A DNA stretch of 64,000 nucleotides from Octopus vulgaris (Eukaryota). The position numbers were made by a program, and so were the translations under genes. Under the pieces are notes generated by a model. The model ran no database searches, was not told the DNA's origin, and saw only the letters and a list, made by a program, of their open reading frames with translations. Positions 1-62,035 of this stretch are shown piece after piece. Positions within the stretch are counted from its first letter, which is position 1; each line of letters begins with the position of its first letter. The stretch is from positions 130,758,001 through 130,822,000 of the forward strand of contig OX597817.1 of NCBI GenBank assembly GCA_951406725.2, written 5' to 3'.

Positions 1-3000
1 AACTAAAATAGTTAACCAACCCCTGGCCGAATACAAAGGTACCCGTGACTATGCCTCTCACACGCGTTTTCCATACTGTTTCTTTTAGTATGGCTACTAC
101 GCAGAAAAAGCAAGCCTTCCTTTCCCTGTTAAAGGAAGGAGGCGGCACAATCTCGATGATAGACTCAGCTGATAGCTGTACTCTTCCCATCGGTGACAAC
201 AGTTGTTCTGTGAAAGCTATCAGTCCCGTTAATTCCGGACATTCTACAAATGCGTGCAAGACGGTTTTCTTGTCCCGCCCGCACTTCGGACATGTCGGCG
301 AGACGGCACTTCCGTGCCTTGAGTTTATTACGAACAGGTAATGCCACACGGAAGCACTGCCAATCCAGGGATTTCTGGTAATTATCCAGGTACCCCGGCC
401 CGAAAGTTCTCCTGAACAAGTCGATCAACTGATTTTCATCGTAGCCCAGAGTATCCCCCAAGGTGTATTCGGACATAATTTCCACTAACCCGCTATAAAA
501 ATCCGAGATGGAGCTCCTATTGCCGGCATTGCCCACCCGAGAGAGTAGCTGAAGTGCCTGGCAGCACTCCAATTGCCAGTCCCTCAGCCTAGGTCTCTGC
601 TTGATCCAGTTACCATATCCGGTAAGGACGTTAACTCTGGAAGGTAGAACTGGACGTGCGGTGACCACACCTGCTCTCCATCCAGGTAAAGCCAGAGGTG
701 CCTCAACCTTAACGCGAGTTTTCGGAACCTCAGCCAAGGCATCCCTAGCCCACCCTTTAGCGGTTTTTGGTAGCAGACAGAGCGCTTCACAAGTGGCTTT
801 CCTCATTTCCACAAAAAGCGGAAAAAGATTCTCTCCAACTTGTTCAGCCAAAAATCGGGGCAAGGAACCACGGTCAGACGGTAGGTGATAACCGACGCTA
901 TAAACATCTGCACCACCTCCGCCTTTCCCAGGAAGGACAACGCCCGCCCAGACCAGGTCTGGGTTAGAGCAGTCACCTTGCTGGCCACCTAACTCCAATT
1001 TTTCTCTATCTGGAGGACTGGCCCGAACCAGACTCCGAGCTGTTTAACAGGACCTTCCGTCCAACTCCCCACGACGTTATTGGACGGTATCGGCTTGCCC
1101 CTCCAAGTGCCAAGTTGCAAACCGACCGACTTGTCTTTGATAACCTTTGCTCCTGCCATCGCCTCGTAACTTTTGACAGCCTCTTCCACTGGAAGCTGGC
1201 TCTCATCCGCCATGGTGATGGAGATGTCATCCGCATATGATGACACACCATAGAGAACGCGGTGCGCCTCCTAGTGTCTCCAACATCCGCAAGAATGTTT
1301 CGAGAGCCAACACATATAAAAGCGGAGACAGGGGACACCCCTTACGCACTGAGCGCTCGATTCTGAATGGCTTCGAAAGGAAACCATTCACTTTTACGAC
1401 GGACTCGATGTCGCTGTACAACGCAGCAATCCAATCGCGGAAGGTCGGGCCCAGGCCAGCCTTCTCGAGGACCGCCGCCAAGTACCGATGGTCGACCCTA
1501 TCGAATGCCTTAGACTGGTCTAATTGTATCAGTGCCCCGCGCCAGAAAGCTTCCCCACCCTCTCTAAAGAGTACCGTACAAGGTGGAGATTGTCGTGGAT
1601 CGTCCTGCCCGGGATAGCACACGTTTGCGCTTCCCCTACAAGTCTGTCTATAACCCGCGCCAACCTTTTCGCTAGCACTTTGGCCAAAATCTTTAATTCT
1701 GTGTTCAGCAGAGTTATGGGCTTGAAATTCCCTAATTTATCCCCCTTGCTCGGGTCCTTCCTAATCAACGTCACCACCCCACAGCTCGCAGACTTAGGAA
1801 TTCTCCCATTCTGCTGCCAATTGGCGTAGACGCTGGCCAGCAGGTGTCCGAACAAGTCTGGCATACTTTTGTAAAATTCATAAGGCAGAGCCCCGGCGAC
1901 TTCTCCCCGGGGCATTCGCCCAGTACCTCGATCACTTCCTCGGCTGTAATTGTCCCTTCACAGCACTCCGCCTCCCGTGCCGAGAGACGCGAGCCACCAG
2001 ACAGGAAGTCCCTAAGGGCCTCACCATGATCAAGCACCCCGCCCTGTGAAGCACCTCACACATCTCGTCTTGTCCGTCGACCGAACACCCATTGTCATCA
2101 ACGAGAGACCTAATTGTGACATCGTTGTCACGCTGGGTTTGTACTGTACGGGCCCATCCGGCAACATTAATTCCCTCACGGCCCAATGCGTGCACTTTAG
2201 CCCAAATTCTGCACCCCTTATGTTTGGCTTTGAGGTGACGGTCCAAGGCTGTTGTCGCTGCCAAGACATGTGATGCAGAATCCAATCTCATCGCCTCTTC
2301 TAGGTCCTTAAATAGCTGCCCTTCTATTCTGGCCGTCGAGGAAACAAGCTTGCTTCCATTTCGAGCTCAGACCACGCACATTCAGACACCCAAGATTAAG
2401 TGTAGCCAAAACAAGGAAAAAAATACAAGGGTTCTACTTACCCCTCACTAGTGATGTTAGGGCTGACCTCACAACACATGAGGCAGCACTTTACTCCGCC
2501 TCCGCCTCGCCCTTCTTCAAATATCCTGGAAAGTCCAGGATACTCCTGATGGTCTTTGGACGCCTGACCTTCAGTTGCCTGTAAAGGCCTTCCCATATCC
2601 AGGCACATCTTTATCTTAAGTCCTTGTGCTGTTCAAACAGCGTGGTGGGGTTGTGGTCTATTACAATGTCCTCAATGTATTTGTCTCTAGTGTCGTATTT
2701 TACCAGGGTTTTCTGTTCGTACTCTTTCGTGTTTTCCTTTTTTTCTTTGTGGGACAAGGGGACGGGTTCGTTTCTTTTGTTTTTATGGTGTGGTGCTTCC
2801 TTTTTCGTTTTTTTTTGCTGTGAACTCCCCCTCAGCCACCTCCATGGTGTCGTCCGGGGGAGTTACATGTTCTGGTGCCACTTTAGAGGGGGTGAGTGTT
2901 TTTGACGTTGTCGGGACTGGTGTAAGCATGGTCTGGGGGTTTGGGTGTCGTGTTTGGGGGCGGGCACCACAGATAGAGGAGTGGGAATTTTTGTTTCTGT

Positions 3001-11603: not shown

Positions 11604-14600
11604 CTCCTAATGTGTGTGGGCAGACCGGTTTTTATCGGGACCTGGAGCACTTTCTAGTGACGTCTAAAACGTTAGTCTTGGTAGGAGACTTCAACACTAT
11701 TCTCGATGCGCGGGTTGATAGTGTAGGCTCGAACGATAGAAAAGGGAATCCTTGCTTCAAGGTTCTACTAGCGAGTTTTAATCTAGTAGACCGTTTTCGA
11801 CTGGATGAGCCGAACGTTCTACAGTGGACGTGGAGTAACAACGACGGCTCACGCAGATCGTATATAGATAGGGTATTTTTTAAGGAACGAGATAGGAATA
11901 GCGTTAGCTGTCCACAATTTTCTGTTGTGCCTTACACGGATCACAAACTTGTGACGTGTGAGGTACAGGTAGATAAATGCCATAGACAGGGTCCCGGATA
12001 CTGGAAAATGAACAAGTCTATTTTGACTTGTGAAGCTTTCCGTACCCGGATTAAGGAATTAGTCCAGAGGGCATTATGTGGCACCATCATTAATAATAGA
12101 TGGTGGATCGCCCTCAAAAGAGCCATCCGTTTGGAGTCCATTAGATTTAGCAAACAGCTAAGTTTAGATAGGACTAGAATAGAGGGCGAATTAGTGAAGA
12201 ACTTAGACGAGGCAATGGAATCTGGCTGTACATCTGGAGTGTTGGCAGCGAGAACGGTCTTGTACCGTCACCTCAACGCCAAGCATGAGGGGTGTAGAGT
12301 CAGAGCTAAGTTACATGCCGGGAAACGAGAAGGTATTAACGTTGCCGGATGGGCCCGTCGTGAGGAGAGTCAGAAGGGCAAAAAGTCCTGTATTAAGTCT
12401 TTAACTGACGAGCAGGGTCGCAAGATCTATGGACAGGAGGAGATGCAGAAGGTCCTTCACCAGCATTTCGCCCGGTTATTTGGGGATGGCGGTCCGCTCG
12501 AGCGAGGGGATGCCTTAAAGGACTTCCTAGCCGGTGGGCCGCGGCTCTCGACACGTGAGGCGGAATGCTGAGAAGGATCGATCTCTCCCGCGGAGGTAAG
12601 AGAGGTTATGGCCGGTTGCGCCGGGGAAAATAACTCTACTTAGTGTAGAGTTTAAGATTTTGGCCAAGGTGTTAGCAAAAATGTTGACGGCTGTCGAGGA
12701 GAAACTTGTCGGGAAGGCACAGACATGTGCAATCTCAGGCAGGTCGATCCAGGACAATCTTCACCTTCTCCGCTACACTATAGACAGGGTCGGGAAATTA
12801 GCCGGCAAAGGAGGAGCATTGGTCCATTTAGACCAAAGTAAAGCGTTCGATAGGGTAGACCATCGATACTTGGCGGCGGTCCTCGTGGCGGCTGTGCTGG
12901 GCCTTGGCTTTTGCGGGTGGATCTCAGCTATGTACAGCGGCATCAAGTCCACAGTCCAGATAAACGGTTACCTAACGGAGCCGTTTTCGATCAAGCGTTC
13001 AGTTCGTCAAGGGTGTCCCTTGTCCCCGCTCCTGTATGTTTTGGCTCTTGAGCCTTTGCTGCGGAAGTTGGGAGGCAACCCTAATGAAATCAGATGCGGT
13101 AAGTCTGTTTCTACCTATGCGGATGACGTCACTCTCATCGTGTCCAACGAAGCACAGCTACCTCGTGTAGAAGGTGCTCTCCGAAGATACGAAGCGGTGG
13201 CAGGGGCAAAAGTTAACAAGGACAAGTCCACCGGTTTGCGCCTCTGCACCTGGAGGAACAAGCCGATATCGTCCAGTGTTGTTGGGCACTGGACAGATGG
13301 TCCTGTTAAATTGCTCGGAGTTTGGTTTGGTTCAGACTCTCAGACGGAGAAGAATTGGAGCGAGGTAGCGAACAAGGTAGAAGCTATAGTACGGAAGTGG
13401 TCCGGAAGGCATCTTTCCTTGAAAGGGAGGGCGGAGGTGGTACAGATGCTTATATCCTCTGTCATCACCTACCGCCTGACCGTCGTGCCTTGCCTCGATT
13501 CGTGGTTAAGCAAGTTGGAATGACTCCTGTTCCGCTTTTTGTGGAGGGGAGGAAAGCCACTTGTGAGACGCTCCGTGTGTTGCCAGGAACCGCTAAAGGG
13601 TGGGCTGGGGATGCCTTGGCTGATGATGCGCAAGCATGCGTTGAGGCTGAGACATCTCTGGTGTCACCTGGAGGGTGATAAGGTGTGGAGTCCGCTGGCA
13701 GAGGAATTCTTCCCGCGACCGGCCTCTATGGAGAGATTTAAACCCGGTTTCATTAAAAGACGTAACCTGACTTTATGGCAGGAGTGCCGACAGGCACTCT
13801 GGCTGATCCACAAGGTGGGCAAGACCGGCAGCGGGAATACCACCTCGGTGTTCTATAGAGGGCTGATAGAGGCAAAAAATGACGACGTCCTAGGAGGGGC
13901 TCTCGGGTTCGATGAGAATCAACTTTCCAACCTGTTTAAGAAGACTTTCAGGCCGGGGTATTTGGACAATTACCAAAAATCGCTGACCTGGCAGTGCTAT
14001 AGTAATGCATTACCCATTCGCGATAAGTTATCCAGGCACGGAATGTCAGTGCCACCGACGTGTCCAAGATGAGGGTTGGACGATGAAACCGTTCAACACG
14101 CCTTTGTACAATGTCGGGAGCTGTCAAGCTTGATAAGTTACGTTGAACACGTGTTGTCGCATCTGGGACGAGTACAGCTGTCGGCTGGATCTATGATAAA
14201 GATGATACCGTCAACTGGACTCTCAAAGGAAGGTAAGGCTTGTTTTTACTGTACGGTGGCAGTACTGAAAGAGTGTGTGTGGAGAACCAGAATGGAAGGT
14301 TTAGTGACAGGGTCCTTTGTCTCTGGTCTCGGTTTGTTAAAATACTTCAGATATCATCTGAAGAGCAAGACGGGGTTAGAGAAGAGGAGCCTGCCACAGA
14401 AAGAGTATGTGAAACGTTGGAAGGATGTGATGAGAAAGGTGGGTGTTAGTAACCCAGCTTAATCATCGAAGAAAGGAAAAATTAGTTGCTTGGCCTTATA
14501 GGCTGCCGGGTTCAAAATTCGAAATCGGCACTTCCCATTCCTTTTCATTTTACATATGTTATAATTTCTAATGTCTTTTAAAACAAAAAAAAATAAATAA

Positions 14601-14795
14601 ACGCACTAAAGTTCTCGTTATAAAGGCAAAAGTAAGCCAAGTTTTCGTTTAAAGGCAAAAGTAAGCCAAGTTTTCGTTCGTGTTACATTATAATTAAATT
14701 AAAATTTTTTTTTAAAACTCTCATAACATTCTTTGTAATTGTTTGTCCTGTGATGTCCAATTCTATATAAATTCGCATGATCTTAATAAAGATTT
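11604..14795 (+). mobile_element. Tx1-clade non-LTR retrotransposon copy A: 5'-truncated, ORF2 pseudogene plus 3' UTR ending AATAAAGATTT
   Basis: APE motifs (LVGDFN, SYIDRVF, TDHKLV), RT motifs (LDQSKAFD, QGCPLSP, YADD), C-terminal CPR..DETVQHAFVQC zinc finger. In-frame stops and an internal deletion at ~12630. Highly similar to copy B. Confidence 0.95.
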
Positions 14796-14815
14796 CATAT
14801 TCAGCTAGCAGGCCT

Positions 14816-14874
14816 CTGCTACTCTAGATCGATGATGGGCAAAGACCCTGAAACATGCGTGTCTCTAGATGCAG
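14816..14874 (+). ncRNA. Type I hammerhead ribozyme motif with degenerate core (UCGAUGA)
   Basis: Stem I CUGC-(UAC bulge)-UCUAGA / UCUAGA-U-GCAG; stem II GGG-CAAAGA-CCC; GAAA at 14850; stem III ACA-UGCG-UGU; GUC triplet 14861-14863. Confidence 0.75.
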
Positions 14875-15705
14875 GCCTAGCTGTTGGGGGTATTTGTCTC
14901 CCCTTCGTAAATATATAAGGACACAGGAAATGTGTCGAGGTCGACAGGAAGCGTCGGTGTTTCATAGGGCTAAACAGCGGTGGTGTAGTTCCCTTACTGT
15001 TACTTTAAGTTGACAGTATACAACCACACTCCTCCCTCTCTCTCTCTCTCTATATATATATGGTGCAATGATGGTGTAATTTGATTGTTCATTTTGAATC
15101 GATAGAAGGTGTTTTTTTCTAATATTTCATGTATAAGCATGTATATATAGTGACATTGAAGGACACATCTTTCGATTTACAATCTGATATAGTAGAACAT
15201 TTAGTATATGTCTGTATATGTATATATATATGTGTGTATGTGTATATATATGTATTGCATGTTATATACATTATAATATTTTTATAATTTACTTCATCTT
15301 TACTTTTTAATTGTCACTTTAATTTTAACTTTCCTATGATATAAAATTTCAAGATGGTGTAATTTAGTTGTTCATTTTGAACCGATAAAAGTTTTTTTTT
15401 CAAATATTTCATGTATAAGCGTGTATATGTATATAGTGGTATAAATATCAACACAATTTTTCCCCTTCCTCCCTTATTTTTCTTTTTCTTTTTTTGTCTC
15501 TCTCCCCTTCTCCAAACACACAGACACACGCACACACACACGCACACACACACACAAACACACACGGACACACACACAGACACACACACACAGACACACA
15601 CACACACACACACACACATCCACAAAACGATCATAAAAAGTGGAAAGAATTCTTAAACCCCAAAAAGCATTTGACCATTCTCACAATGATAAAAGGAAAT
15701 ATAAT

Positions 15706-15881
15706 TTATGGCCTACCTCCCCGCCACCACACACTCAGTGACACTGTGAAGTGGTCAAAGCTGAAATTCTTAGAACACCCTTGGAGTCAATATTATGGCC
15801 TACCTCCCCGCCACCACACACTCAGTGACACTGTGAAGTGGTCAAAGCTGAAATTCTTAGAGCCCCCTTGGAGTCAATATT
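15706..15881 (+). repeat. Tandem duplication, 87-bp unit x2
   Basis: ttatggcctacctccccgccacc...ggagtcaata at 15706 and 15793. Confidence 0.9.
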
Positions 15882-16249
15882 CTGCCCAGCAGACCAAAAG
15901 AATTCTTTCCTTCTTCTTCTCTCTCCCTTCCCCTCTTTCTCTTTAGCACTCACCTCAGATACAAACACACACACACACACATACACATACACATACACAC
16001 ATGTTCTCTCTCTCACTTTCTCCTCATCCACCTCACCCTCTTGTACTGTCTTATATTCCTCCCCCACCACTACGAAACTCTATAAAATGATTAAAATTCC
16101 CCACAAAGGAACTTATTTTGATTTGAAAATCCCACTAGAATGGGAGAAAGCGCTAATGATCTAAGTGATATGATATATATATAAAAAATGTAATGTATAA
16201 ATAAATATCTGTAAATATAAACCATCCGATCTTCTGATTACCTCATTTC

Positions 16250-16254
<5 letters not shown>

Positions 16255-16323
<69 letters not shown>

Positions 16324-16325
16324 CA

Positions 16326-16359
<34 letters not shown>

Positions 16360-16377
16360 CATACATACATACATACA

Positions 16378-16450
<73 letters not shown>

Positions 16451-16485
16451 GCATACATATATATGTATATTTAAATATATATATA
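16255..16485. repeat. (TA)n/(TACA)n microsatellite
   Basis: Direct inspection. Confidence 0.95.
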
Positions 16486-16489
16486 TTCA

Positions 16490-16908
16490 TTCTTTTATTT
16501 GTTTCAGTCATTTGATTGCAGCCATGCTGGAGCACCGCCCATAATCGAACAAATCGAGCTCAGGACGTATTCTTTGTAAGTCTAGTACTTATTATATCAG
16601 TCTCTTTGGCAGAACCACTAAGTTACGGGGACGTAAACACACCAACATCGATTGTCAAGCAATTGCTGGGGGACAAACATCGACACACAAACACACACAC
16701 ATACATACATACATACAAATATATATATATATATATATATATACACGACGGGCTTCTTTCAGTTTCAGTGTACCAAATCTACTCACAAGGCTTTGGTCGG
16801 CTCGAGGCTATAGTACAAGACACTTGCCCAAGGTGCCACGCTGTGGGACTGAATCCGGACCTATGTTGTTGGTAAGCAGGCTACTTACAACAGAGGCACT
16901 CCTGCGCC
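16490..16908 (-). mobile_element. tRNA-derived SINE (ggcgcaggagt... family)
   Basis: Reverse complement of the family at 42582; tRNA-like A/B box head and shared tail. Confidence 0.85.
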
Positions 16909-16946
16909 TACATATATATATATATATATACACACATGTAACTACC

Positions 16947-16996
<50 letters not shown>

Positions 16997-16997
<1 letters not shown>

Positions 16998-17416
16998 TTA
17001 TCGCCGTACTAATATGGCAATCTTATAAAAATAAGAAAAAAGCTGTCCGCTTATTAGCTCCATGAGGCCATCGCCTTAAGTTAGCTATTCGATACACAAA
17101 CTGTATCCATATAACCTTCGAACAAGGGAGGTCAGTCGCTCCACACTCCTTGACCGACAGCTACAGTTTGTGTATCGAATAGCTAACTTAAGGCGATGGC
17201 CTCATGGAGCTAATAAGCGGACAGCTTTTTCTTATTTTTATAAGAATGCCATATTAGTATGGCGATAACTATTAATTTCCAGGAACGCTGCCGTAATCTC
17301 TTTTAGAGAGACTTAGTAATTTTAATATTTCTATTATTGAAAACAAGTGGATGTATTCCACAGAAACTAGGTAAATAAAACCTTCGAACAGAGATAGTCA
17401 GAAGCGACACCTACTG
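16997..17416 (+). mobile_element. HHR retrozyme-like element, 5' portion with inverted 5' segment (host of Tx1 copy B)
   Basis: 16997-17105 is an inverted repeat of 17162-17270. 17162-17337 repeats at 22884-23060. Flanked by (TA)n. Confidence 0.85.
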
Positions 17417-17634
17417 ATTTTTCCTTGGATTACGTCGGATTATTTTACGCTGTAAGCTGTTATGTTAGTTCGTTCTGTTCTGGATTTACACGTACAGTTT
17501 TTGGATTATTAACTTGTGGAACAAAGTAATTTTCACCCTTCGGGGTAGAAAATTTCTTTTTATATATGAACTATTAACTCAGTGTGGAATTAACTTTTAT
17601 CTTGTCTCTTGTGACAAGTCACTTGCATTTTAAT

Positions 17635-19126
17635 ATGGATCTTGACTTAACGTCAAATTCTGATTTTCCCGAGATGGGAGAAGTTATAAATAATGGAAAG
17701 CAAAAGGATACAAAGGAGAAACAAAGTTTTTCGGAAGCCGTTGGAGGCAATGTTATAGAACTGGAAGTAGCAATGGGGGATCTCTTCAAGTTCAGAAAGT
17801 TCATACAAAGGAATGGAGAAGAAACGAGAATAATACCGCCCCCTGACACCTTACAAGCAATCCGTGAGAAGACGGTAATTTATAAGGTATATAATATTAA
17901 GGAAAAAAAGATTGCAGATGTAAAAAATGAATTGGTAGAACGGTGCATGGCACCAATTTGGAACAAGGTTCGCTATGTTGGCCGAGGAGTGAGAAGCGCT
18001 GCTATTGAAGCGCATTTCGAGTCGGCTAGCATAGCGAAGGAAATTTCAACTCAAACGTTGAAGAGTGCAGACATCCTGTTGCTGCCCACGTACTTAGGGC
18101 GCAGAACAGCTAAGGTAACAATAGAGGATATACCAACAGGTTACGATGTAATGTGGGCAGCAACAGCGGTCGTATTCGACGTAGAAGAGAAATTAAACAT
18201 TTTAAACATGAGGATGAAAGAGGCAAAATTTTGGAAAGGTCAGCAGCTTGAAATGATCGTTCAAGCTGACAATGCAACGCTGGAGAGTTTGCCAGACAGG
18301 GTCTTCGAGGGGGATGGACACACTATGCGGGTATCGGTGGAGGGACGTAGGCCCAGATGTTTCAAATGTGGGCAGAAGGGTCACGTCCGCTCAGAGTGCA
18401 AAAAAGAAAAAACCCGTTAATGCCCCCATTCAAACCGCTGTGGAGAACAAAGCAGACATCACAGCAACAACAAAAGAGAATACCCGGAAAAAGCAAAATG
18501 AAAGTCAAAAGGAGGAAAAGAAAATGAATGGAAAACAAAACGAAAACGAAAACGAGGGGGAAAATAATTTATCAAATGGAAAAGAACTGGAAGTAATGGA
18601 ATATACGACTGTAACCAACAAAAGGAAGAAATCCAATACCCCGGACTCCCCACCCCAAACAAAAAGAAAAACAAACGCAGAAGAACAACACAAAAAAATT
18701 ATCCAATCCCACCCCGCTGGCACTACTTTTGTAGGCCAGCATTTCATTAAACCCCAGCCCCCAACTTTAAAAGAATTAAAAAAAACCGATAGGTGCATTG
18801 CTTATAACACAAAAAACGAGAGAGTAGTTTGGTACATAAAAGCGAAACCAAACATAAAATGTTTCAAATCATCGGAAAAAAACCCGGATTGGAGGTATGC
18901 GAAGGTTGGAGAGGAGGAATGGAAGGAGAGACTCTTCCAACTACACGTGAGGGACAACCTGATTAAAGATGTCACACAAGAGGTGATAGCTGGAAAATTG
19001 AATATTAGCCCGGCAGCCACTCCATCCCAGAGCCCGGTGGCAACGCCGGTTAAATGCCCAGCAACAACGGAGAGTGTGGGGGAGGCAGGCAGACAAAAGC
19101 TGCCATGCTCCCTCTCACAACCGTAA
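17635..19126 (+). pseudogene. Tx1 ORF1 (gag-like, CCHC zinc knuckle), split by a +1 frameshift at ~18410
   Basis: ORF 17584-18420 (first ATG MDLDL at 17635) contains CFKCGQKGHVRSEC. Continuation in ORF 18272-19126 ends LPCSLSQP*, homologous to copy C. Confidence 0.85.
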
Positions 19127-19150
19127 GTAACAAACTTTCTTCATTCATCG

Positions 19151-22100
19151 ATGATTAAGTTGGGCTGTATAAATGTGCGTGGAATGGGGTCGAAATGGAA
19201 ACAGGCTTGCTTGCTGGACGACCTCAGGACACACAGAATAGATGTAGCCATTGTCACCGAGTCCAAAATGAGAGGAACCCAAGCGTTCTCGCATCTTCTC
19301 AATGGTTACGAGAAATTTATTTCTCCTAGCCGAGGAGGAAGTGCAGGCGTGACAGTCCTTATCAGGAAGAACTTGGACTTACAGGTAAGTACTGTCTTTA
19401 TGGACCCAGAAGGTAGGCTGGTTGTCCTCGATGTAACTCACGTGAGTAAGCAGTCCTTCAGGTTGGTAGCTGTTTATGCTCCTAATGAGGGTAGGCAGAC
19501 TGGTTTTTATCGGAACTTGGAGCACTTTTTAGTGACGTCTAAAACGGTAGTATTGGTAGGGGATTTCAACACTATCATCGATGCGCGGATAGATAGTGTG
19601 GGCTCGTCTGATAGAAGGGAGAAATTCTTGCCTCAAGGGTCTACTGACGAGCTTTAATCTAGTAGATCGGTTTCGAATGGATGAGCCGAGCATTCCACAG
19701 TGGACGTGGAGTAACAATGACGGCTCACGCAGATCGTATATAGATAGGGTATTTGTTAAAGAACGAGATAGGAATAGCATTAGCTGTCCACAATTTTGTA
19801 TTGTGCCTTACACGGATCACAAATTAGTGACGTGTGAGGTACATGTAGATAAATGCCATAAACAGGGACCCGGATACTGGAAAATGAACAAGTCTATTTT
19901 GGCTTGTGAAGCTTTCCGTAACCGGATTATGGAATTAGTCCAGAGGGCATTATGTGGCACCATCATTAATAATAGATGGTGGATCGCCCTCAAAAGAGCC
20001 ATCCGTTTGGAGTCCACTAGATTTAGCAACCAGCTAAGTTTAGATAGGTCTAGAATAGAGGGCGATTTAGTTAAGAACTTAGACGAGGCAATGGGATCTG
20101 GCTGTGCATCTAGAGTGTTAGCAGAGAGAACGATCTTGTACCGTCACCTCAATGCCAAGCATGAAGGATGTAGAGTCAGAGCTAAGCTACGTGCAGTGAA
20201 ACGAGAAGGTATTAATGATGCCGGATGGGCACGTCATGTGGAGAGTCAGAAGGGCAAAAAGTCCTCTACTAAGTCTTTAACTGACGAACAGGGACGCAAA
20301 ATCTATGGACAGGAGGAGATACAGAAGGTCTTTCAACAGCATTTCGCTCGGTTGTTTGGGGAGGGCGATCCACTCGAGCGAGGAGAGGACTTACAGAACT
20401 TCCTAGCTGGTGGGCCTCGGCTCTTGCCACGCAGAGCGGAACGCTGTGAAGGACCGATTACTCCTGCGGAGGTAAGAGGGGTTTTGGCTGAATGCGCCCG
20501 GGAAAAGTCGCCGGGACTGGATGGTCTGCCCTATGAGTTTTATTGTTGTATGCCGGACTTGTTCGGGGACATACTGGCAAGCGTCTACGCAAACTGGCAA
20601 CAGAATGGGAGGATTCCCAGTTCTGTGAGCCGGGGAGTTGTGACGCTGATCCAGAAAGACCCGAGCAAGGGGGATAATATTAGTAATTATAGGCCCATAA
20701 CTCTACTTAATGTAGAGTTAAAGATTTTGGCCAAGGTGTTAGCAGAAAAGTTGAAGGTCGTCATGGAAAAACTTGTGGGAAAGGCACAGACTTGTGCAAT
20801 CCCAGGCAGGTCGATCGAAGATAATCTTCACCTTCTACGCTACACTATAGACAGGGTTGGGCAATTAGCCGGCAAAGTAAAGCATTTGATAGGGTAGATC
20901 ATCAGTACCTGGCGACGGTTCTCGAAGCGGCTGGGCTAGGCCCTGACTTTCGCGGGTGGATATCAGCTATGTACAGCGGTATCAAGTCCACAGTCCACAT
21001 AAACGGTTACTTAACGGAACCGTTTTCGATTAAGCGTTCAGTTCGTCAAGGATGTCCCTTGTCCCCTCTCCTGTACGTTTTGGCTCTTGAGCCATTGCTG
21101 CGGGAGTTGGAGACGGTGAGATGCAATCCTAATGAAATCGGATGCGGTAAGTCTGTTTCTGCGTATGCGGATGACGTCACCTTCATCGTGTCCAACGAAG
21201 CACAACTAACTCGTGTAGAAGGTGCTCTCCGAAGATACGAAGCGGTGGCTGGGGCAAAAGTTAGCAAGGACAAGTCCACTGGTTTGCGCCTCGGCACCTG
21301 GAGGAACAAGCCGATATCGTCCAGTGTTGTTGGACACTGGACAGATGGTCCTGTTAAATTGCTTGGAGTTTGGTTTGGTTCAGACTCCCAGACGGAGAAA
21401 AATTGGAGCGAGGTAGTGACCAAGGTAGGAGCCATAGTTCGGGAGTGGTCCGGAAGGCATCTTTCCTTGAAAGGGAGGGCGGAGGTGGAACAGGTGTTTA
21501 TAGCATCTGTAATCACCTATCGCCTGACTGTCGTGCCTTGCCCCGATTTGTGGCTAAGCAAGTTGGATCGACTCCTTTTCCGCTTTTTGTGGAAGGGAGG
21601 AAAGCCACTTGTAAGGCGCTCCGTGTGTTGCCAGGAACCACTAAAGGGTGGGCTGGGTATACCTTGGTTAATGATGCGCAGGCATGCGCTGAGACTGAGA
21701 CATCTCTGGTTTCACCTGGAAGGTGATAAGGTGTGGAGTCCGCTGGCAGATAATTTCTTCCCGCAACCGGACTCTATGGAGAGATTTAAACCCGGTTTCA
21801 TTAAAAGACGGAATCTGACTTTATGGCAGAAAGAGTGCCGACAGGCACTCTGGCTGATCCACAAGATAGGCAAAGCCGGCTGCGGGAATACCTCCTCGAC
21901 ATTTTATAGAAGGATGGTAGAGGCAAAAAATGACGACATCCTAAGAGGGACTCTGGGGTTCGATGAGGATCAACTATCCGACCTGTTTAAGAAGACTTTC
22001 AAGCCGGGGTATTTGGACAATTACCAAAAATCCCTGACTTGGCAGTGCTATAGGAATGCTCTACCTGTTCGCGATAAGTTATATAGGCATGGAATGTCAG

Positions 22101-22520
22101 TGCCACCGACATGTCCAAGATGTAGGTTGGACGATGAAACCGTCCAGCACGCTTTTGTACATTGTCAGGAGCTCTCAGGCTTAATAAGTTACGTAGAACA
22201 CGTCTTGTCGCATCTGGGACGAGTACAGCTATCGGCTGGTTCTATAATGAAGATGATACCGCCAGCTGGACTCTCAAAGGAAGGTGAGGCTTGTTTTCAC
22301 TGTACGGTGGCAGTACTGAAAGAGTGTGTGTGGAGAACTAGATTGGAAGGTTTGGTGTGAGGATCCTTTGTCTCTGGATATGGTATGTTAAAATACTTCA
22401 GATACCATCTAAAGAGCAAGATGGATTTAGAGAAGAGGAACCTGACACAGAAAAAGTATGTGAATCGATGGAAGGATGTGATAAAAAAGGTGGGTGTGAG
22501 TAACCCTGCTTGGTCATCAT
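19151..22520 (+). pseudogene. Tx1 ORF2 (APE endonuclease, reverse transcriptase, CCHC finger), disrupted
   Basis: MIKLGCINVRG, VYAPN, VGDFN, SPGLDGLPYEFY, YADD, CPRC..ETVQHAFVHC. Frameshift near 19615, 28-bp deletion at ~20876, premature stop at 22358-22360. Confidence 0.92.
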
Positions 22521-22758
22521 GAAGGGAGAAAATAGTCTCTGGGCTCTTAGGCTGTCGGGTAAGAATCCTGACTGTGATATACCTAGCTGGCCAAAATCAT
22601 TTTTAATTTAAAAAAAAAAGGAGAAAAGTAAAGTCTAGTATCATAATCAATAATCAACATATGTAAATATCAAACGAACAACGTAAACTTTTTGTAATTA
22701 TGTTTTGTATTGTAATGTACTATCTCTGTAAGATTTTTATAATCATAATAAAGATTTT

Positions 22759-23060
22759 AGAAGCGACACCTACTGGGTCTGACTACGCTGCATTGACAAA
22801 GGGCAAATACCCTGAAACGCGTCTGTAGCTGTCGGTCAAGTAGTGTGGAGCGACTGACCTCCCTTGTTCGAAGGTTATATGGATACAGTTTGTGTATCGA
22901 ATAGCTAACTTAAGGCGATGGCCTCATGGAGCTAATAAGCGGACAGCTTTTTTCTTATTTTTATAAGAATGCCATATTAGTATGGCGATAACTATTAATT
23001 TCCAGGAACGCTGCCGTAATCTCTTTTAGAGAGACTTAGTAATTTTAATATTTCTATTAT
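22759..23060 (+). mobile_element. HHR retrozyme-like element, 3' portion (monomer ~363 nt once the Tx1 insertion is removed)
   Basis: Continues the 17162-17416 unit, contains the HHR, repeats 17162-17337 at 22884-23060 and ends in (TA)n. Confidence 0.85.
22779..22835 (+). ncRNA. Type I hammerhead ribozyme, U3-A8 core variant (UUGACAA)
   Basis: Stem I CUGAC-(UAC)-GCUGCA / UGUAGC-U-GUCGG; stem II AGGG-CAAAUA-CCCU; GAAA at 22814; minimal palindromic stem III ACGCGU; predicted cleavage after C22823. Confidence 0.88.
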
Positions 23061-26275: not shown

Positions 26276-26328
26276 TATCACTGACGAAGGGAGGGTTCTT
26301 AAGAACTAACCCTGAAATCGGTCCGATA
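26276..26328 (+). ncRNA. Type I hammerhead motif
   Basis: uauca-CUGACGA-AGGG..CCCU-GAAA-UCG-GUC-cgaua; one mismatch at the base of stem I. Confidence 0.7.
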
Positions 26329-28531: not shown

Positions 28532-28624
28532 TGTTGCTACACATCGCTGGTCACATTGCGCATTGTTTTAGCCTTCAAATGACACCGCCCCGCTGGCTAA
28601 GCGAGTAGGCCAATATATATATAT

Positions 28625-29844
28625 ATTATTTTTATTTTATCGCAATTTGATTTGTTTACATATTTCTCGATAAATTATGAGCGCTAGACGATATACCAGA
28701 AATCCCTAGTTTTGTCGGGACGTTCGGAGTCTGCGCAGTGATATGATTAGTTAGAGAGAGTAAATCATTAGAAGCACATGCTTCTAGTGAGTTAGGATCT
28801 CAGAAAAACAGGGCTCTCACTGACGAATTCTCCCTGAGCAAATAAATTATCTTTATTGCTGAAAAGAAAGAAACTGCAGTCTGAGAATAACCGAGTTAGT
28901 AAATGTTTTTATCTTCATTTCACTTAATTTATCAAGCTTCTGTGTTCCTAGCACATATTTCGCCTTAATGTACTGATATATGGAAAATATATGGCTTGTG
29001 TTAGTAATACCAGCGATTATAATTATTTTTATTTTATCGCAATTTGATTTGTTTACATATTTCTCGATAAATTATGAGCGCTAGACGATATACCAGAAAT
29101 CCCTAGTTTTGTCGGGACGTTCGGAGTCTGCGCAGTGATATGATTAGTTAGAGAGAGTAAATCATTAGAAGCACATGCTTCTAGTGAGTTAGGATCTCAG
29201 AAAAACAGGGCTCTCACTGACGAATTCTCCCTGAGCAAATAAATTATCGTTATTGCTGAAAAGAAAGAAACTGCAGTCTGAGAATAACCGAGTTAGTAAA
29301 TGTTTTTATCTTCATTTCACTTAATTTATCAAGCTTCTGTGTTCCTAGCACATATTTCGCCTTAATGTACTGATATATGGAAAATATATGGCTTGTGTTA
29401 GTAATACCAGCGATTATAATTATTTTTATTTTATCGCAATTTGATTTGTTTACATATTTCTCGATAAATTATGAGCGCTAGACGATATACCAGAAATCCC
29501 TAGTTTTGTCGGGACGTTCGGAGTCTGCGCAGTGATATGATTAGTTAGAGAGAGTAAATCATTAGAAGCACATGCTTCTAGTGAGTTAGGATCTCAGAAA
29601 AACAGGGCTCTCACTGACGAATTCTCCCTGAGCAAATAAATTATCGTTATTGCTGAAAAGAAAGAAACTGCAGTCTGAGAATAACCGAGTTAGTAAATGT
29701 TTTTATCTTCATTTCACTTAATTTATCAAGCTTCTGTGTTCCTAGCACATATTTCGCCTTAATGTACTGATATATGGAAAATATATGGCTTGTGTTAGTA
29801 ATACCAGCGATTATAATTATTTTTATTTTATCGCAATTTGATTT

Positions 29845-29848
<4 letters not shown>
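28625..29848 (+). mobile_element. Retrozyme-like tandem array: three 397-bp monomers plus ~33 bp, one HHR per monomer
   Basis: Units start at 28625, 29022, 29419 and 29816; CUGACGA cores at 28820, 29217 and 29614; flanked by (TA)n. Confidence 0.92.
28815..28886 (+). ncRNA. Type I hammerhead ribozyme (further copies at 29212-29283 and 29609-29680)
   Basis: UCUCA-CUGACGA-long stem II (uucu/agaa; agcaaauaa/uuauugcu)-GAAA-CUGCA-GUC-UGAGA; palindromic ACUGCAGU stem III; predicted cleavage after C28881. Confidence 0.85.
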
Positions 29849-29896
<48 letters not shown>

Positions 29897-36339: not shown

Positions 36340-36440
36340 TAAAGTATACTAGCCATCTCAATATGGCTAACCACTAAGGGTGGGTGTTACTGTAGCTTTT
36401 AGCCCCGATGTGGGTGTTACTGTAGCTTTTAGCCCCGATG
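36340..36440 (-). mobile_element. Fragment of the HHR retrozyme-like family, forming the 3' flank of Tx1 copy C; includes a 30-bp tandem duplication
   Basis: Minus strand catcggggctaaaagc and hairpin gccatattgagatggc match catggagctaataagc (22925) and gccatattagtatggc (22971). Confidence 0.7.
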
Positions 36441-39400
36441 TCTGTGCTTTCCCTACAAGTTTCTCCACGACAGTCGTCAACCTTTTTGCCAACACCTTGG
36501 CCAAAATCTTTAACTCTACATTAAGTAGAGTTATGGGCCTGTAATTACTAATGTTATCCCCCTTGCTCGGGTCTTTCTGGATTAGCGTCACAACTCCCCG
36601 GCTTACAGAACTGGGAATTCTCCCGTTCTGCTGCCAGTTCGCGTAGACGCCTGCCAGTATTCCCCCGAACAAGTCCGGCATACTTTGATAAAACTCGTAG
36701 GGCAGACCATCCAGCCCCGGCGACTTCTCCCCGGCGCATCCGGCCAGTACCCCCTCTATCTCCGCGGGAGTGATCGCTCCTTCATAGCACTCCACTTCAC
36801 GCCCCGAGAGCCGCGGTCCGCCGGCTAGGAAGTCCTTTAAGGCCCTCCCCCGCTCCAGCGAACCACCACTCCCGAACGCGCGAGCGAAATGCTGGTGAAG
36901 AAACTTTTGCATATCCTCCTGTCCATAGATCTTGTGTCCCTGTTCGTCAGTTAAAGACTTGATTGAAGCTTTGTTGCCTCTCTGACTCTCCACTCGACGG
37001 GCCCATCCGGCAACGTTAATACCTTCTCGTTTCCCTGCGCATAGCTTAGCTCTAACTCTGCAACCTTCGTGTTTGGAGTTAAGGTGATGATACAATACCG
37101 TCCTTGCCGCCATCACTCCGGATGCAGAGCCAGATTCCATTGCCTCGTTTAGATTCTTAACTAAATCGTCCTCTATCCTAGACCTATCTAACCTTAGCTG
37201 ATTGCTAAATCTAATGGACTCTGAACGAATGGCTCTTTTGAGGGAGTGCCACCATCTATTGTTAATGATGGTGCCACATAATGCCCTCTGTACTAACACC
37301 TTAATCCGGGTACGGAAGTCTTCACAATTCAAAATAGACTTGTTCAGCTTCCAGTACCCGGGTCCCTGTCTATGACACTTATCTAATAGCACCCTACAAG
37401 TCACAAATGTGTAATCCGTGTAAGACACAATGTGAAACTGTGGACAACTAAACGTATCCTTATCTCTTTTCCTAACGAATATCCTATCTATATACGATCT
37501 GCGTGAGTCGTCGTTGTTACTCCACGTCCACTGTGGAACGCTCGGCTCATCCAGTCGATAACGGTCTACTAGATTAAAGCTCTCTAGTAGACCCTTGAGG
37601 CTAGGGTTCCCCTTCCTATTGGTTGAGCCAACACTGTCGACCTGCGCTTCGAGGACAGTGTTAAAGTCCCCTACTAAGACTACCGTTTTCGACGTCACTA
37701 AAAAGTGCTCCAGATTCCGAAAAAAACCCGACTGCCTATTCTAATTCGGAGCGTAGACAGCTACCAACCTGAAGGACTGTTTACTTAGGTGGGTCACATC
37801 CAGAACGACCAGCCTGCCTTCTGGGTCCAGAAAGACAGTACTTACCTGCAAGTCCAAGCTCTTCCTGATAAGGACTGCCACGCCCCTTCCTCTTCCTCGG
37901 CTAGGAGAAATAAATTTCTCGAAACCATTTAGAAGAGGCGAGAACGCTTGGGCCCTGTTCATCTTGGACTCGATTACAATAGCTACGTCCACTCCGTGTG
38001 TCGTGAGGTCGTTCAGGAGACAAATTTGTTTCCATTTCGACCCCATTCCACGCACATTCACACAACCCAGCTTTGCCATTGTCGGAGAGAGAGAAAAAAA
38101 CTTACGGTTGGGACAGGGAGCATGACAGTTTAAATCTGCATGCTTCCCCTTCTTCCTCCCTCGTGGTCGTAGCTGCAGGGCTCTTAACCGGCGTTTCCAT
38201 CGGGCTCTGGGTAGGTGTGGTTGCCGGGGTTATAGTAAATTTACCCTCCAGTATTTCGTTAGTAACGTCTCTGATAAGGTTATTTTTTAAATGTTCTTGA
38301 AGTGTTTTTTCCTTCCACTCGTCTTCCTTTATTTTTGCAAAACGAGTGATCGACTTAGTGGCTGCAGACTTACTGAATAATTTCAGTTTTGAAAATTCAA
38401 AATACTTGAACACTCTATCATTTTTCTCGTCGAATGCTACAACCTTTTCATTTTTTTAATCAATTTTTTCCAATCTTGTTTTATGGGGAGGGGCTTGGCG
38501 AACTGTGTTCCAATGAATACAGTGCCGTGGGGGTAGGGCTGGGGAATTTGTTTTGTATGTATCTCTGCGGTGTTTGCAGATCTTTTCTTTGTTTGGGGAG
38601 GGGAGTCCAGGGTATTTTCTTTTTTCTTTTGTGTGTCACCTGTGTAAATTCCATTTGTTCATTTTTATCTTCCGTTTCGATTCCCTTCCTTGTCGCAGTC
38701 TTGGGGTCTTTTTCCGCCTTTTCTTTTTCTGTGTTTGAAGCACTTTGAGGAGGGCTTCGCTGTTTTTCTTTTTTTTATGCAGTTCGAGCGGACGTGACCC
38801 TTTTCACCACATTTGAAACACCTAGGTCTGCGCCCCTCCACTGGCACTCTCATTGTAATTCCCTCCTCAATAAATACCCTATCGGGTAAGTTTTCTAGCA
38901 CATTATTTTCTGCTTGAACGAGGAGTTCGAGCGCTTGTCCCTTCCAGTTTACCTCCTCTTTCCTTTTCATCTGCAGAATTGAGACTTTCTGCTCTACGTC
39001 GTACAGAACCGCCGCTGCTACCCACATTATATCATATCCTCTTGGAATGTCTTCCACATATAGTTTCGCAGTTCTTTTTCCCATATATGTAGGTAGTAAC
39101 ATGATGTCCTCACTTTTTAAGGTCATCGATGAAATCTCTCTTGCCACATCAGCCGAGTCAAAATGTGCTTCAACGGTAGCGCTGCGAGCACCTCGACCGA
39201 CGTAGCGAATTTTGCTCCACACCGGGGACAAGCACTTCTCGACTATTTCGTTCTTCACGTCCATTATTTTTTTCTCTTTGTTTCTGTAAACCTTGTATAC
39301 GACTGTCTTAGCCTTTATTTCCTGTAATATCGCTTGCGGCGGTACCAGTTTAATTTCGTTGCCTTCCTTTTTTACCAAGTTCCGGTATTCGAACAACTGT

Positions 39401-39748
39401 TCTATTTTAAATTCTACTTCCGTTATGGTTCCACCCACTGCGGCCGAAAAAGACTGTTTTTTAACCTCGACATCCTTCTGTTCGCCTTTTCTCATCACGG
39501 GAAAGTCGCTCCTCGACGCCAAGTCGAACTCCATTTCTCAAATTATGAGAACCAATTTTTCAATAAAAAAAAATTACCCTGAAGGTAATAACAATGTTTA
39601 TACACACAATTTTCAGCCCCGTAGGGCGAAAATTACTGTCACACAACGGACAACTGTTCAATTCACGAGCAAATACAAACAACGACGAACAAAAAACGAA
39701 CACACTCAACAAAATAGGCAGCTAACTTCTCAATACGCAGATGAAAGA
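36438..39748 (-). mobile_element. Tx1-clade non-LTR retrotransposon copy C: 5' end intact, 3' half deleted within the RT
   Basis: ORF1 38102-39534 (CFKCGEKGHVRSNC; ends LSCSLSQP*). ORF2 from 38079 (MAKLGCVNVRG) to GKAQT at ~36440. 5' end estimated by analogy with copy B. Confidence 0.93.
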
Positions 39749-40069
39749 GGGGTCCCTAGACGAGTCAAAACACCGGTTTTCGATGAAGGGAGACCTGTTT
39801 GCAAATATTTATTTAATGTTTTTTCCCAGTAACTTCCGTCACTGATTTCGAAAAACTGTCTGCAAGCAATAATAAATCTCTGAACGAGATGTAAACAGTA
39901 ACCTCTCGACAACGTAAATATTGATTAAGCTGGAGATAAAACTGTTATTAATCTGACAAACGCTGTAAATCTCTCATCATCTCAATACAATCCACACAAT
40001 TATCATACACAATATTTATTAACTTGGAAAGCTCATCAAAAGATGGGGTTTAATATAATCACACCGAGT

Positions 40070-58379: not shown

Positions 58380-60022
58380 AGTAATAAAAGTCATTATTCT
58401 GAATTGTTAAAGAGATTCAAAAGCATACCGGTTTCATGAATTTTCTAATCATTGGTTTGAGTGCACATCGATTAATGAACGGTCTCAGGTCTATTAGTCC
58501 CTGAGTAAAGCGATTATGTGTAAGGGAGGTAAGTCGTTCTGGATTTGGTGCAATTAGGGTAGATATAGATCTGTAATGTGAATGGTGTATGGGATGTATG
58601 GATGTTAGTAGTATTAATTGAAAGGTTAGTAGTGTTCTGTATTATGTTATGTGTTCATATTGAGTTGTGGAAGATATTTATTGATGAAAGTTGCCTCTTC
58701 ATTCTTTGTTTGTACTGAGGTGTTCTCTGAACATTGATAGAAGGAGAAAATTAGGAAATTAGGATTAAGATTCCTAGGACACCTGTATCTGTCTGTATTG
58801 TTGGTGGCGGATATGTTCTTTGTGGAGAGTGGTTCTTCGATGTAGTGATATTCCTGTTTGGCCAATATAATTATGACCACTCACTAAGCATGTAATGGCA
58901 TAGACAAAATTTTCCGAGGCACAGGTGAAATTTGATTTGATCTTAAATATTTTAACTTGTTTAAAGTGGAATTCTGAATCCTCCAAAAGGTGGGGGCATG
59001 TTCCACACATAGGACGACCACATTTTTTCACTTTTGGTTCTGTTGTTAATGGATATAGTCTTGAACTGGTTAATATTTTTTCAATGATTTGGGTTGCAGT
59101 CTGCTCTTGATTATTTTGTGTGAGCCTAAAATTTTGTTCATTGTTTTATGTCCTGTGAGGATAGGAAGACTTTGGATGATAATGTTAACGGCTTCGTTGT
59201 TTTTAGGGTTATGTGTGGAGATGTATGTGAGTATTTTTAAGTCTGATGTAGTATTTCGGTTGACGTCCCTTAATGTTCGTATATCTCTTTCCATAAATCG
59301 TTTAATGCCATCATTTATTAAAGATATATTAAAGATATTGGGTAATGTCTTTTGAGAAGTATTATCTGAGTTCAAGGAGTCTTTGTTCACGAGAATAGGT
59401 GTCCGAAACTATGGTACAGATTCTTTTCGCTAGATTATAAGGTATATTAATTTTGATGTGTTTGGGTAGCATGAGTTGAATAATATGTATTGTTTATAAT
59501 CTGTGGGTTTAGAGGAGATGTCTGTTTCGATGTGGTTATTGACCATTTTGATTAGGATTTCAAGAAAAGAGAGTTGTTTATTGCTGTGCTCCATGGTGAA
59601 TTGTATGTTGCTATTAATATTGTTAAGCATTATTTTGAAATCGAGGATTTTGTCCATGCTGTCCTTCCAAAGTATAAAGCAATCGTGCAAATTCCTCTTC
59701 CAGTTCTCCCTTAAATAGCAATGAAATAAGGTGCCATATTTTTGTAGTGATGATTGATATATTTTAAGCTCTAGTAACCCATTACAAGGTTCGCAATCAC
59801 TGGAGCAGCTCGGGTTTCCGTTGCAATTCCACATTTTTGTCGATAGTAATCTGTATCGAACATGAAATAGTTGTTCAGTAGTATGAATTAGAGTACTTCG
59901 ATTATGAATCTGTGGTAAATGCGTCCTGGGATCTCTTCTTGGTGTTTTTCTAGCAAGAAAGTAATCGCTTCTATACCATAATCGTGTGGGATATTGTGGT
60001 ACAAATTCACCACATCGAATGA

Positions 60023-61110: not shown

Positions 61111-62035
61111 CTGATACTCATACCCGGAATTTGGAAAAATCTCTGCTCCAAATTAATTGACAATTTTCAAGGATTTGATGGTCTTCATGAATGTATGTAT
61201 GTATAATAGTTAAGAAGGCAAGAAGACAGGTGTATAATACATACAGAGAATAAGTGACGAGAGCAGACCAAGAACCTAAAATTGATTGTCAAATGAAAGG
61301 ATACATAATCTGTGCAAATAAAAGTTGAATATAGGTAATGTATCAGCTGAACTAATGAAAATATACTAAAATAGATGTTCTGATAGCTGCTTAGGTATCA
61401 AACCGTTTATATTAATAATAAAGTGAACATAAAATGAAATAAATTCAGTAGAAAAAAATCCCCAAAAGACTGCTGTATGGACTTTCGTAGTGATACCTCA
61501 TAGACAGGTAAAAACCCTGATTTTTATGAACATGGTATAAATGATTCTGTATCTTTGCAGTGACACATAATTGGAAGATCTTGGTGGGTGTAGCACCTAC
61601 TTTGGGGCTGAAATCCATACCAAACACACACACTGAATGCCATAACACCTGCGAACAGGTGAGGTCATCAACATCCCCTTGTCGGCTTGGCAGATGGTCA
61701 ACAGCGACGCCTGCTGGACTCGGCTACTCCACATTGATAAGGTGGAAATACTCCGAAACCGGTCTGTGGTTGCAAAGCCAGCAAGCGAAAGGTGATGACC
61801 TGTCTGTTGGAAGGTGTTATGGACGCAGAAATGTGGGGCAAAAAGAAAAACTTTCTTTGCTAATGTGCTGAAAAATAGACGCTAAATCGTCTAACCACAT
61901 ATTTTTAGTTTTATTATTACACCACATGTCGAAACGAGGAGAGCAAGCTAACAGAAATTCATAAAATATAGTTATCCCCGTATCTGTTCCGATTTCTGGA
62001 TTAATCCGAAAAGGATTCTTCCTTCATCAACGAGG

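Follow-up and report, generated by a model that had tools for sequence, protein, structure and literature searches.

Octopus LINEs inserted at U1, U2, and hammerhead-retrozyme sites with a putative snRNA-type promoter

What does a retrotransposon recognise when it is found at one and the same base of a repeat that carries a hammerhead ribozyme? The question is raised by a 64,000-nt stretch of the forward strand of Octopus vulgaris contig OX597817.1 (assembly GCA_951406725.2, positions 130,758,001 to 130,822,000), called the window in the following, which belongs to chromosome C4 of the 2.8-Gb genome. It contains three long interspersed nuclear elements (LINEs), here copies A, B, and C, next to such repeats, and a sequence-only reading had proposed that this LINE lineage uses hammerhead retrozymes as a multicopy target and inserts at a fixed distance from the ribozyme core. 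These elements insert in a site- and strand-specific manner, generate target-site duplications (TSDs) of about 17 nt, and stack in tandem; their targets share an upstream motif, the proteins of elements on different targets are near-identical, and some copies carry foreign leaders. The targets are the genes for the small nuclear RNAs (snRNAs) U1 and U2 as well as hammerhead retrozymes of at least four families that are homologous to one another (A, B, C, and D), with one copy in a further family, E. The best explanation, and in our judgement on balance a probable one, is that the LINE radiation lives at the predicted starts of units with snRNA-type promoters through promoter capture and target-homologous RNA ends. 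The coordinates of the features in the window are collected in Table 1.

Copy B and the retrozyme targets

Copy B has a zf-CCHC knuckle in open reading frame (ORF) 1 and Exo_endo_phos (the APE endonuclease), RVT_1, and zf-RVT domains in the pieces of ORF2, as detected by Pfam. The two 17-nt direct repeats bounding it are 100% identical, and the hammerhead core downstream starts at 22793, 34 nt past the start of the TSD, just as the sequence-only reading had described. The interrupted unit comprises 363 nt. That reading had called it a tandem unit, which is correct for the period of the B family (362-363 nt) but not for the window, where we find an inverted partial arm, the one interrupted unit, and a 176-nt partial unit, and no long tandem. 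The B hammerhead has a 4-bp stem II, GAAAC at 22814-22818, a short palindromic helix III, and a helix I reaching back to the insertion site. Cleavage is predicted after 22823, and the fold has a z score of -2.85. It had been assigned to the target and not to the 3' untranslated region (UTR) of the LINE, and this assignment stands: empty sites, TSDs, and tandem copies that are followed by the TSD only led us to reject a hammerhead within the 3' UTR.

Elsewhere in the genome B units occur in tandem arrays, each unit with a type I hammerhead motif. Both orientations are present in 23 of 30 B-unit loci (inverted arm), and the array ends cluster about 60 nt apart at unit positions 108-117 (19/33) and 172-176 (11/33). 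Tandem hammerhead units without ORFs are known as non-LTR (long terminal repeat) retrozymes and have been proposed to be derivatives of Penelope repeats (PMC7229834; bioRxiv 10.64898/2026.07.22.740005), and an inverted arm and alternative 3' ends are marks of Penelope-type insertion (PMC8557442). Because tandem arrangement, inverted arm, and clustered array ends match the described marks, the B target is, judged from its sequence, a non-LTR retrozyme with Penelope-type structure and predicted self-cleavage. A Penelope ORF with reverse transcriptase (RT) and GIY-YIG parts leading into a unit was not found in the examined loci, which have short flanks, and four ORFs resembling those of Penelope-like elements (PLEs) lie downstream or apart. 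The units A, B, C, and D share their layout and are homologous, yet only 46-62% alike, and in all four families the insertion site is the 5' foot of the hairpin closing the hammerhead (extended helix I). The A-type cores read CCGATGA in 27 and CTGATGA in 3 of 36 cases. The hammerhead calls rest on a scan for motif and pairing and on the resemblance to minimal type I variants in the literature; the U3-A8 pair and a short palindromic helix III have been reported for metazoan Penelope-associated hammerheads (PMC4209133). The Rfam hammerhead models gave no match in the window (E<=1) nor in six tested flank loci, including those of L164, L182, L195, L179, and L062, as would be expected for variants with minimal helix III and U3-A8. 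A separate pattern search caught just six B and three C hammerheads, and the B and C core counts were taken instead from the following census of element ends.

Three exact patterns from the element-internal 3' end yielded 9 A-type, 25 C/D-type, and 29 B/U1-type ends, 63 in total, none of which has a poly(A) tail. Retrozyme sites account for 47 of them (41 directly before a hammerhead and 6 in stacks behind the same TSD), the 5' ends of U1 and U2 snRNAs for 7, and 9 are located elsewhere. Together with the TSDs and the empty sites, this supports the proposed site- and orientation-specific insertion into multicopy hammerhead repeats, and the 3' flanks are not mostly unrelated to these repeats. 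Among the B/U1-type ends, 18 precede a B hammerhead, 3 belong to a five-copy stack, 2 are at a U1 or U1-like start, and 6 are elsewhere, with flanks that begin ATAC or ATAT. The C/D-type ends are found before C- or D-type hammerheads (16), stacked behind a C-type TSD (3), at U2 (5), and elsewhere (1), and seven of the A-type ends precede an A hammerhead while two are elsewhere. Older or short copies are often elsewhere than target sites, and of the best 30 matches of the copy A 3' UTR, 17 are at retrozyme sites (one of family E), 12 elsewhere, and one is without an end.

The specificity is most evident in the young B-type copies, where the same 17-mer in the same orientation follows 21 of 21 3' ends, all at one base. 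Given 1,153 exact empty B sites in 2.8 Gb, the chance of hitting such a site is about 2e-7 per random insertion; empty-site joints were also seen in the contigs of three of four public sequencing runs. The 17-nt TSD is present at both ends in 17 of these 21 copies, its first base (A or G) being the local allele, and the other four show deletions, a partial TSD, or an inverted junction. TSDs of 17 nt also bound the C, D, and U2 copies, with one to two mismatches in 4 of the 16 loci read at both ends, and 5'-truncated copies with a TSD are known in B, A, and E. The very young element L238 (C24:20246560, minus strand) is 99.95% identical to two sisters, yet 2 of 17 bases differ between its TSD copies. 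Decay would not account for so many differences, and one TSD copy may have come with the RNA or by recombination.

A fixed distance to the core is not a property of these insertions. Copy A ends with AATAAAGATTT at 14795, its target begins at 14797, and the core at 14829 is 32 nt further on. The sequence-only reading was thus right about the common orientation, but the distance is not 33 nt and the core (TCGATGA) is degenerate; a TSD of copy A was not seen in the window. Copy C had been thought to be flanked by the same repeat family as copy B. Its flank is C-type, homologous to the B unit yet of a different family (46% alike), and copy C itself, with 82% identity in ORF2 and 67% in ORF1, represents a separate subfamily. 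Across the families the distance from site to core is 32-34 nt in A and B, 28 nt in C and D, and about 14 nt in one E copy, so that the notion of a constant 33-34 nt had to be dropped.

Elements at U1 and U2 and a shared upstream motif

Rfam confirms the U1 and U2 targets. The TSD at U1 spans +1 to +17 and starts with the U1 +1, and at U2 it spans -3 to +14, with the +1 being 3 nt inside. Clusters of U1-type genes (more than 20 starts) and of U2 genes are located at C18:48.97-49.21 Mb and C3:20.78-20.83 Mb, each holding related LINEs at the 5' ends, partly in tandem. Trees of the ORF2 end (52 rows of at least 400 nt, shorter rows and 5 without a located end being excluded), of the endonuclease (47 rows), and of the full-length elements (19 rows) yield three groups: B together with U1- and ATAC-type relatives, A, and C/D/U2. 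Within the last group, full-length copies at U2 (four), C' (four), and D (L154) are 98.7-99.7% identical, mostly 99.1-99.7%, and 98.1-98.8% in the case of L234. Their endonuclease DNA differs by 0-1%, and all seven columns diagnostic for the U2 copies sit in the UTRs. The endonuclease DNA of B and of its U1-leader and ATAC-type relatives is 96.5% identical, with target sites matching at 5 of 17 bases. Because U1 and U2, which have no hammerhead, hold such near-identical or related elements, a reading in which the ribozyme itself is targeted is not supported, and because in addition its core distance varies, the ribozyme is not the element common to the targets.

Some copies also record where their RNAs came from. 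In four of four full-length U2 copies, the 14-mer of the D site, with one shared change, is found behind the U2 TSD, and L242, whose own site is not a U1 one, has the initial 17 nt of U1. Those RNAs therefore began at the site of the donor. The first 3-7 bases of the target are also present at off-target copies. Of these, 12 of 17 retain no more of ORF2 than its last 220 nt, compared to 1 in 48 rows that are on target. Such a difference would be expected if homology of the leader served in 5' joining, age not being controlled in this comparison. At the other end, AATAAA is located 4-9 nt before the junction of element and target. Since there is no poly(A) tail and this signal is so close to the end, transcripts should run into the TSD.

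What the targets have in common is found upstream. On three chromosomes, 31 U1-type starts are preceded by the motif ATCAGT at a distance of 56-60 nt, against no match in the control, and 8 of the 18 exact U1 19-mers are among these starts. The motif is found 59-60 nt before the U2 +1 in six of six distinct upstream sequences (as ATTAGT in L226), counted apart from repeats of one locus and from tandem junctions. At 54-61 nt before the retrozyme site it occurs in 12 of 15 C flanks, 4 of 5 D flanks, the single E flank, and 9 of 23 A flanks, many A copies being without that upstream part. The B retrozyme has the variant ACAAGTGGATGTA at -57 and an AT run at -28. Next to copy C, an ATCAGTG beginning at 39846 precedes the site by 59 nt, the background frequency of ATCAGTG in the window being 7e-5 per base. 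The TATA-like run was considered as a sign of RNA polymerase III (Pol III) and rejected, as U1 promoters carry a similar AT run. From its position and conservation, and set against the typical spacing of a proximal sequence element (PSE), the ATCAGT-like motif is most likely a PSE. Because this PSE-like motif is found at constant spacing in U1, U2, and the retrozymes, the insertion site would in all targets coincide with the predicted transcription start, at +1 or up to 3 nt before it. An alignment placing all four sites in one column adds weak support, the sequences having been cut at the same offset. A precedent is newt satellite 2, which has an snRNA-type promoter (Coats 1994, as cited in PMC2220036).

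Target inheritance and competing explanations

How could elements with nearly the same protein remain faithful to different targets? In the explanation we favour, the APE domain would nick DNA with a preference for a short sequence. A copy at +1 would be transcribed in full length from the host promoter, so that its RNA would start with 14-17 nt of target, and, given that AATAAA is only 4-9 nt away from the element end, the RNA would run on into the 3' TSD. The target-homologous ends of the RNA would then pair with the nicked site, both in priming and in 5' joining, and for this reason each donor would mainly re-seed its own target type. A rare landing at another snRNA-type start would found a new target lineage. 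Comparable contributions of the RNA are documented: accurate priming in R1Bm depends on target sequence downstream, RNA ends homologous to the target assist R1Bm and SART1 in priming (PMC7265360), and co-transcription with target genes can strengthen specificity (PMC4494074). The hammerhead is probably for the most part a bystander that marks the target family, although it might sometimes cut read-through RNA. It could further be that the niche of these LINEs consists of snRNA-type start sites as such, the target being inherited via RNA ends and possibly promoter factors and not fixed by the endonuclease, with practically the same protein hopping between U1, U2, and retrozymes of the same promoter and the ribozyme at times setting the 3' end; this wider proposal is tentative, and we regard it as possible rather than probable.

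Several points weigh against the favoured explanation. The retrozyme families are homologous, so that their shared motif represents one event and not five, and the site is at +1 in U1 yet 3 nt before +1 in U2. The off-target copies L138 and L242 do not have an upstream PSE-like motif, and the motif of L158 is out of register. The start site of the retrozymes is predicted, and the contigs of public runs showed no starts or ends. It may be just that the short off-target copies belong to older subfamilies, and the census patterns were taken from subfamilies already seen. Lastly, the C', D, and U2 sites share the motif TTYATCG-N6-GG, and because a fuller degenerate 15-mer has no non-target match in the approximately 0.9 Mb of DNA examined, plain endonuclease recognition is viable for the C'/D/U2 clade and can explain its choice of sites.

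The same argument could be extended to the entire radiation, with the APE endonuclease of each subfamily reading its target, as in the standard view of endonuclease-determined target choice (PMC4494074), and the promoter position resulting from selection for transcribed copies. A, B, and C/D/U2 are indeed separate clades with different endonuclease sequences, and the first target bases are shared by off-target sites. In its strict form, however, TTYATCG-N6-GG has 12 non-target matches in the 0.9 Mb (tens of thousands genome-wide), yet 24 of the 25 C/D-type ends belong to targets or target stacks. The endonucleases of B and the U1-type elements are almost the same and have unrelated targets, and the lineage with the U2 leader stayed in U2 (4/4) without coding differences from the D and C' copies. 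We therefore consider target reading by the endonuclease throughout to be rather unlikely. Recruitment of the element proteins by a PSE-bound, SNAPc-like complex, followed by nicking at the start site, seems improbable to us. Yeast Ty elements use Pol III factors, and a tether would account for the spacing of 55-60 nt to the PSE-like motif, which is constant in U1, in U2, and in retrozymes whose site sequences are unrelated. It would also fit a distant LINE family, its ORF1 26% identical to that of B, whose 5' ends are directly behind A-type, C-type, and one unassigned site (L146, L170, L181, L239, and L041/L243, stacked with closer subfamilies). These five loci are however a biased set, as they were found beside other elements. 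Where insertions are off target, the motif is missing and target bases are nonetheless shared, and a tether alone would not hold the subfamilies to separate targets.

There is very little room for a role of the hammerhead itself, either as a downstream ribozyme trimming read-through RNA or as a recognised hairpin. Such a role would agree with the position of the site at the foot of the extended helix I in A-D and with cleavage 63-71 nt past AATAAAGA in all scored ends. In addition, the 3' flank of the full-length copy at L186/L231 (C16:20780170, minus strand) stops exactly at the GUC cleavage site and joins the 5' region of another LINE, and the TSD copies of L186 differ at 2 of 17 bases. L186 is thus a possible case of ribozyme-terminated 3' transduction, but it is a single case among 63, and a deletion by GTC microhomology fits equally well. 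Against such a role are also the U1 and U2 targets, the variable distance to the core, the CCGAUGA found in most A cores, and the poor cleavage of minimal metazoan hammerheads as monomers (PMC4209133). The least probable explanation is that a few insertions were multiplied together with the retrozyme, by the Penelope machinery or by duplication. At L122 an inverted retrozyme arm is joined directly to an internal LINE position without a TSD, and at three loci LINE copies are present in both arms of one inverted retrozyme structure (L068/L214, L059/L167, and L177/L178). As a main cause this is largely refuted by 5'-truncated copies with intact upstream unit and TSD (L128, L141, and L156), by the five stacked copies at C2:73.05-73.07 Mb, by the several subfamilies and targets, and by the B copies, in which either element tail (TTTA or TTTT) is found with either target allele (A or G), the allele matching at both ends. 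Hitch-hiking may still explain single copies such as L122.

The window, known systems, and meaning

Table 1. Positions of the LINE copies and their targets in the 64,000-nt window
Feature	Position	Strand	Remarks
LINE copy A	11604..14796	+	5'-truncated at 11604; 88-89% identical to B
A-type retrozyme from the insertion site onward	14797..15030	+	degenerate core 14829-14835; cleavage would follow 14863
Inverted partial copy of the B unit	16994..17166	-	Penelope-type inverted arm
B-type retrozyme unit upstream of copy B	17162..17416	+	unit positions 1-255
PSE-like motif	17343..17355	+	57 nt 5' of the insertion site; 11/13 bases as in the U2 promoter L173
TATA-like AT run	17372..17380	+	28 nt 5' of the site; in 33/40 distinct B upstream flanks
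5' TSD copy of copy B	17400..17416	+	17 nt; opens with the base predicted as retrozyme +1
LINE copy B, full length	17417..22758	+	ORFs broken by frameshifts; 3' end AATAAAGATTTT without poly(A) tail
3' TSD copy of copy B	22759..22775	+	17 nt
B-type retrozyme downstream of copy B	22759..23060	+	runs up to unit position 176, where one of the two favoured 3' ends lies
Type I hammerhead of the B unit	22787..22829	+	core 22793-22799; U3-A8 replacing C3-G8
LINE copy C, other subfamily	36440..39770	-	3'-truncated; then tail of a C-type unit, ~36360-36441
C-type retrozyme promoter region at the copy C 5' end	39771..39846	-	17-nt site 39787-39771

The window contains further repeats of related kinds. 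A diverged relative of the B-type retrozyme at 61626-61830 (+) has a U3-A8 core near 61733 and a B-like site without a LINE. The 397-nt tandem repeat at 28620-29854 (+; 3.1 copies at 99%), with CTGACGA followed by GAAAC..GTC near 28820, may represent a further young family of retrozymes, one whose stem II is long. Hammerhead-like motifs with a long stem II and an AUA triplet are found at 26281 (+) and 62030 (-) in other repeat families, and a decayed Penelope-like element at 58777-60020 (-) has RT and GIY-YIG pieces matching PLE-like ORFs elsewhere in the genome. The LINE at 141-2393 (-) belongs to the same group but is more remote (67% identity to B), and an 87-nt tandem duplication (2 copies, 97%) at 15706-15881 lies between copies A and B.

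In general, the architecture of the LINEs, with APE, RT, and a C-terminal zinc-binding region in ORF2 and CCHC in ORF1, fits the Tx1 clade, and so does the preference for a target sequence with a long TSD, which is a Tx1 trait. The best solved matches of the endonuclease are human L1 endonucleases (E ~1e-9 to 1e-10). Among named RT regions, that of an octopod is the nearest (64%), followed by those of fish, coral, sea cucumber, and lancelet (37-42%), Zepp and a plant LINE reach 25% over ORF2, and no named Tx1 reference (Tx1L, Keno) is among the homolog matches listed. As L1/Tx1-type LINEs they are putative members of the Tx1 clade, a placement supported by architecture and behaviour.

Tx1-clade LINEs are known to target other transposons, satellites, and snRNA genes, for example Tx1D (piggyBac type) by Xenopus Tx1L and Mariner-N4 by crocodilian Tx1-Mar, while others target LTR elements, Harbinger, and satellites (PMC4494074). 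The octopus LINEs resemble the transposon-targeting members in being APE-type, in using one site in a multicopy mobile element, and in stacking in tandem, but differ in that the target is a hammerhead retrozyme, that sister subfamilies occupy several families, and that the site is a predicted promoter start. Neither Penelope nor hammerhead is mentioned in the main text of PMC4494074. Like Keno, also of the Tx1 clade, and Utopia, which insert into U2 snRNA genes at nucleotide 38/39 and sometimes in tandem (PMC4640811), the octopus elements use U2, but at -3/+14, and U1 at +1/+17; the covered text of PMC4640811 lists no LINE for U1. The targets share with the non-LTR retrozymes the tandem 300-400-bp units, the type I hammerhead with palindromic helix III and U3-A8, the inverted arm, and the alternative 3' ends. 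A targeting LINE, in contrast, is not mentioned in the covered parts of PMC7229834, bioRxiv 10.64898/2026.07.22.740005, PMC8557442, and PMC4209133. Newt satellite 2 is a similar hammerhead tandem repeat with its own snRNA-type promoter, the latter being putative in octopus. To our knowledge, no retroelement targets its start site. With R1Bm, SART1, and R2 the octopus LINEs would share the aid that target-homologous RNA ends or co-transcription give to specificity (PMC7265360, PMC4494074). Those elements belong to other clades and have single targets. We know of no switching among promoter-sharing targets for any of them. In the literature searched, to which Repbase, Dfam, subscription journals, and supplements did not belong, we found no report of a retrozyme or Penelope-repeat target of a LINE or of insertion at an snRNA +1.

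A change of target in LINEs is usually put down to a change in the endonuclease. Elements that are more than 99% identical on three targets, with leaders recording earlier hosts, make the roles of protein, RNA homology, and promoter separable. The U1 +1, the U2 +1, and the retrozymes are added to the list of LINE targets. If RNA ends indeed guide the retargeting of an APE-type LINE, this would be of interest to genome engineering. If the explanation favoured here is true, invertebrate retrozymes would be transcribed from snRNA-type promoters, as is newt satellite 2, and their start would be marked by a LINE.

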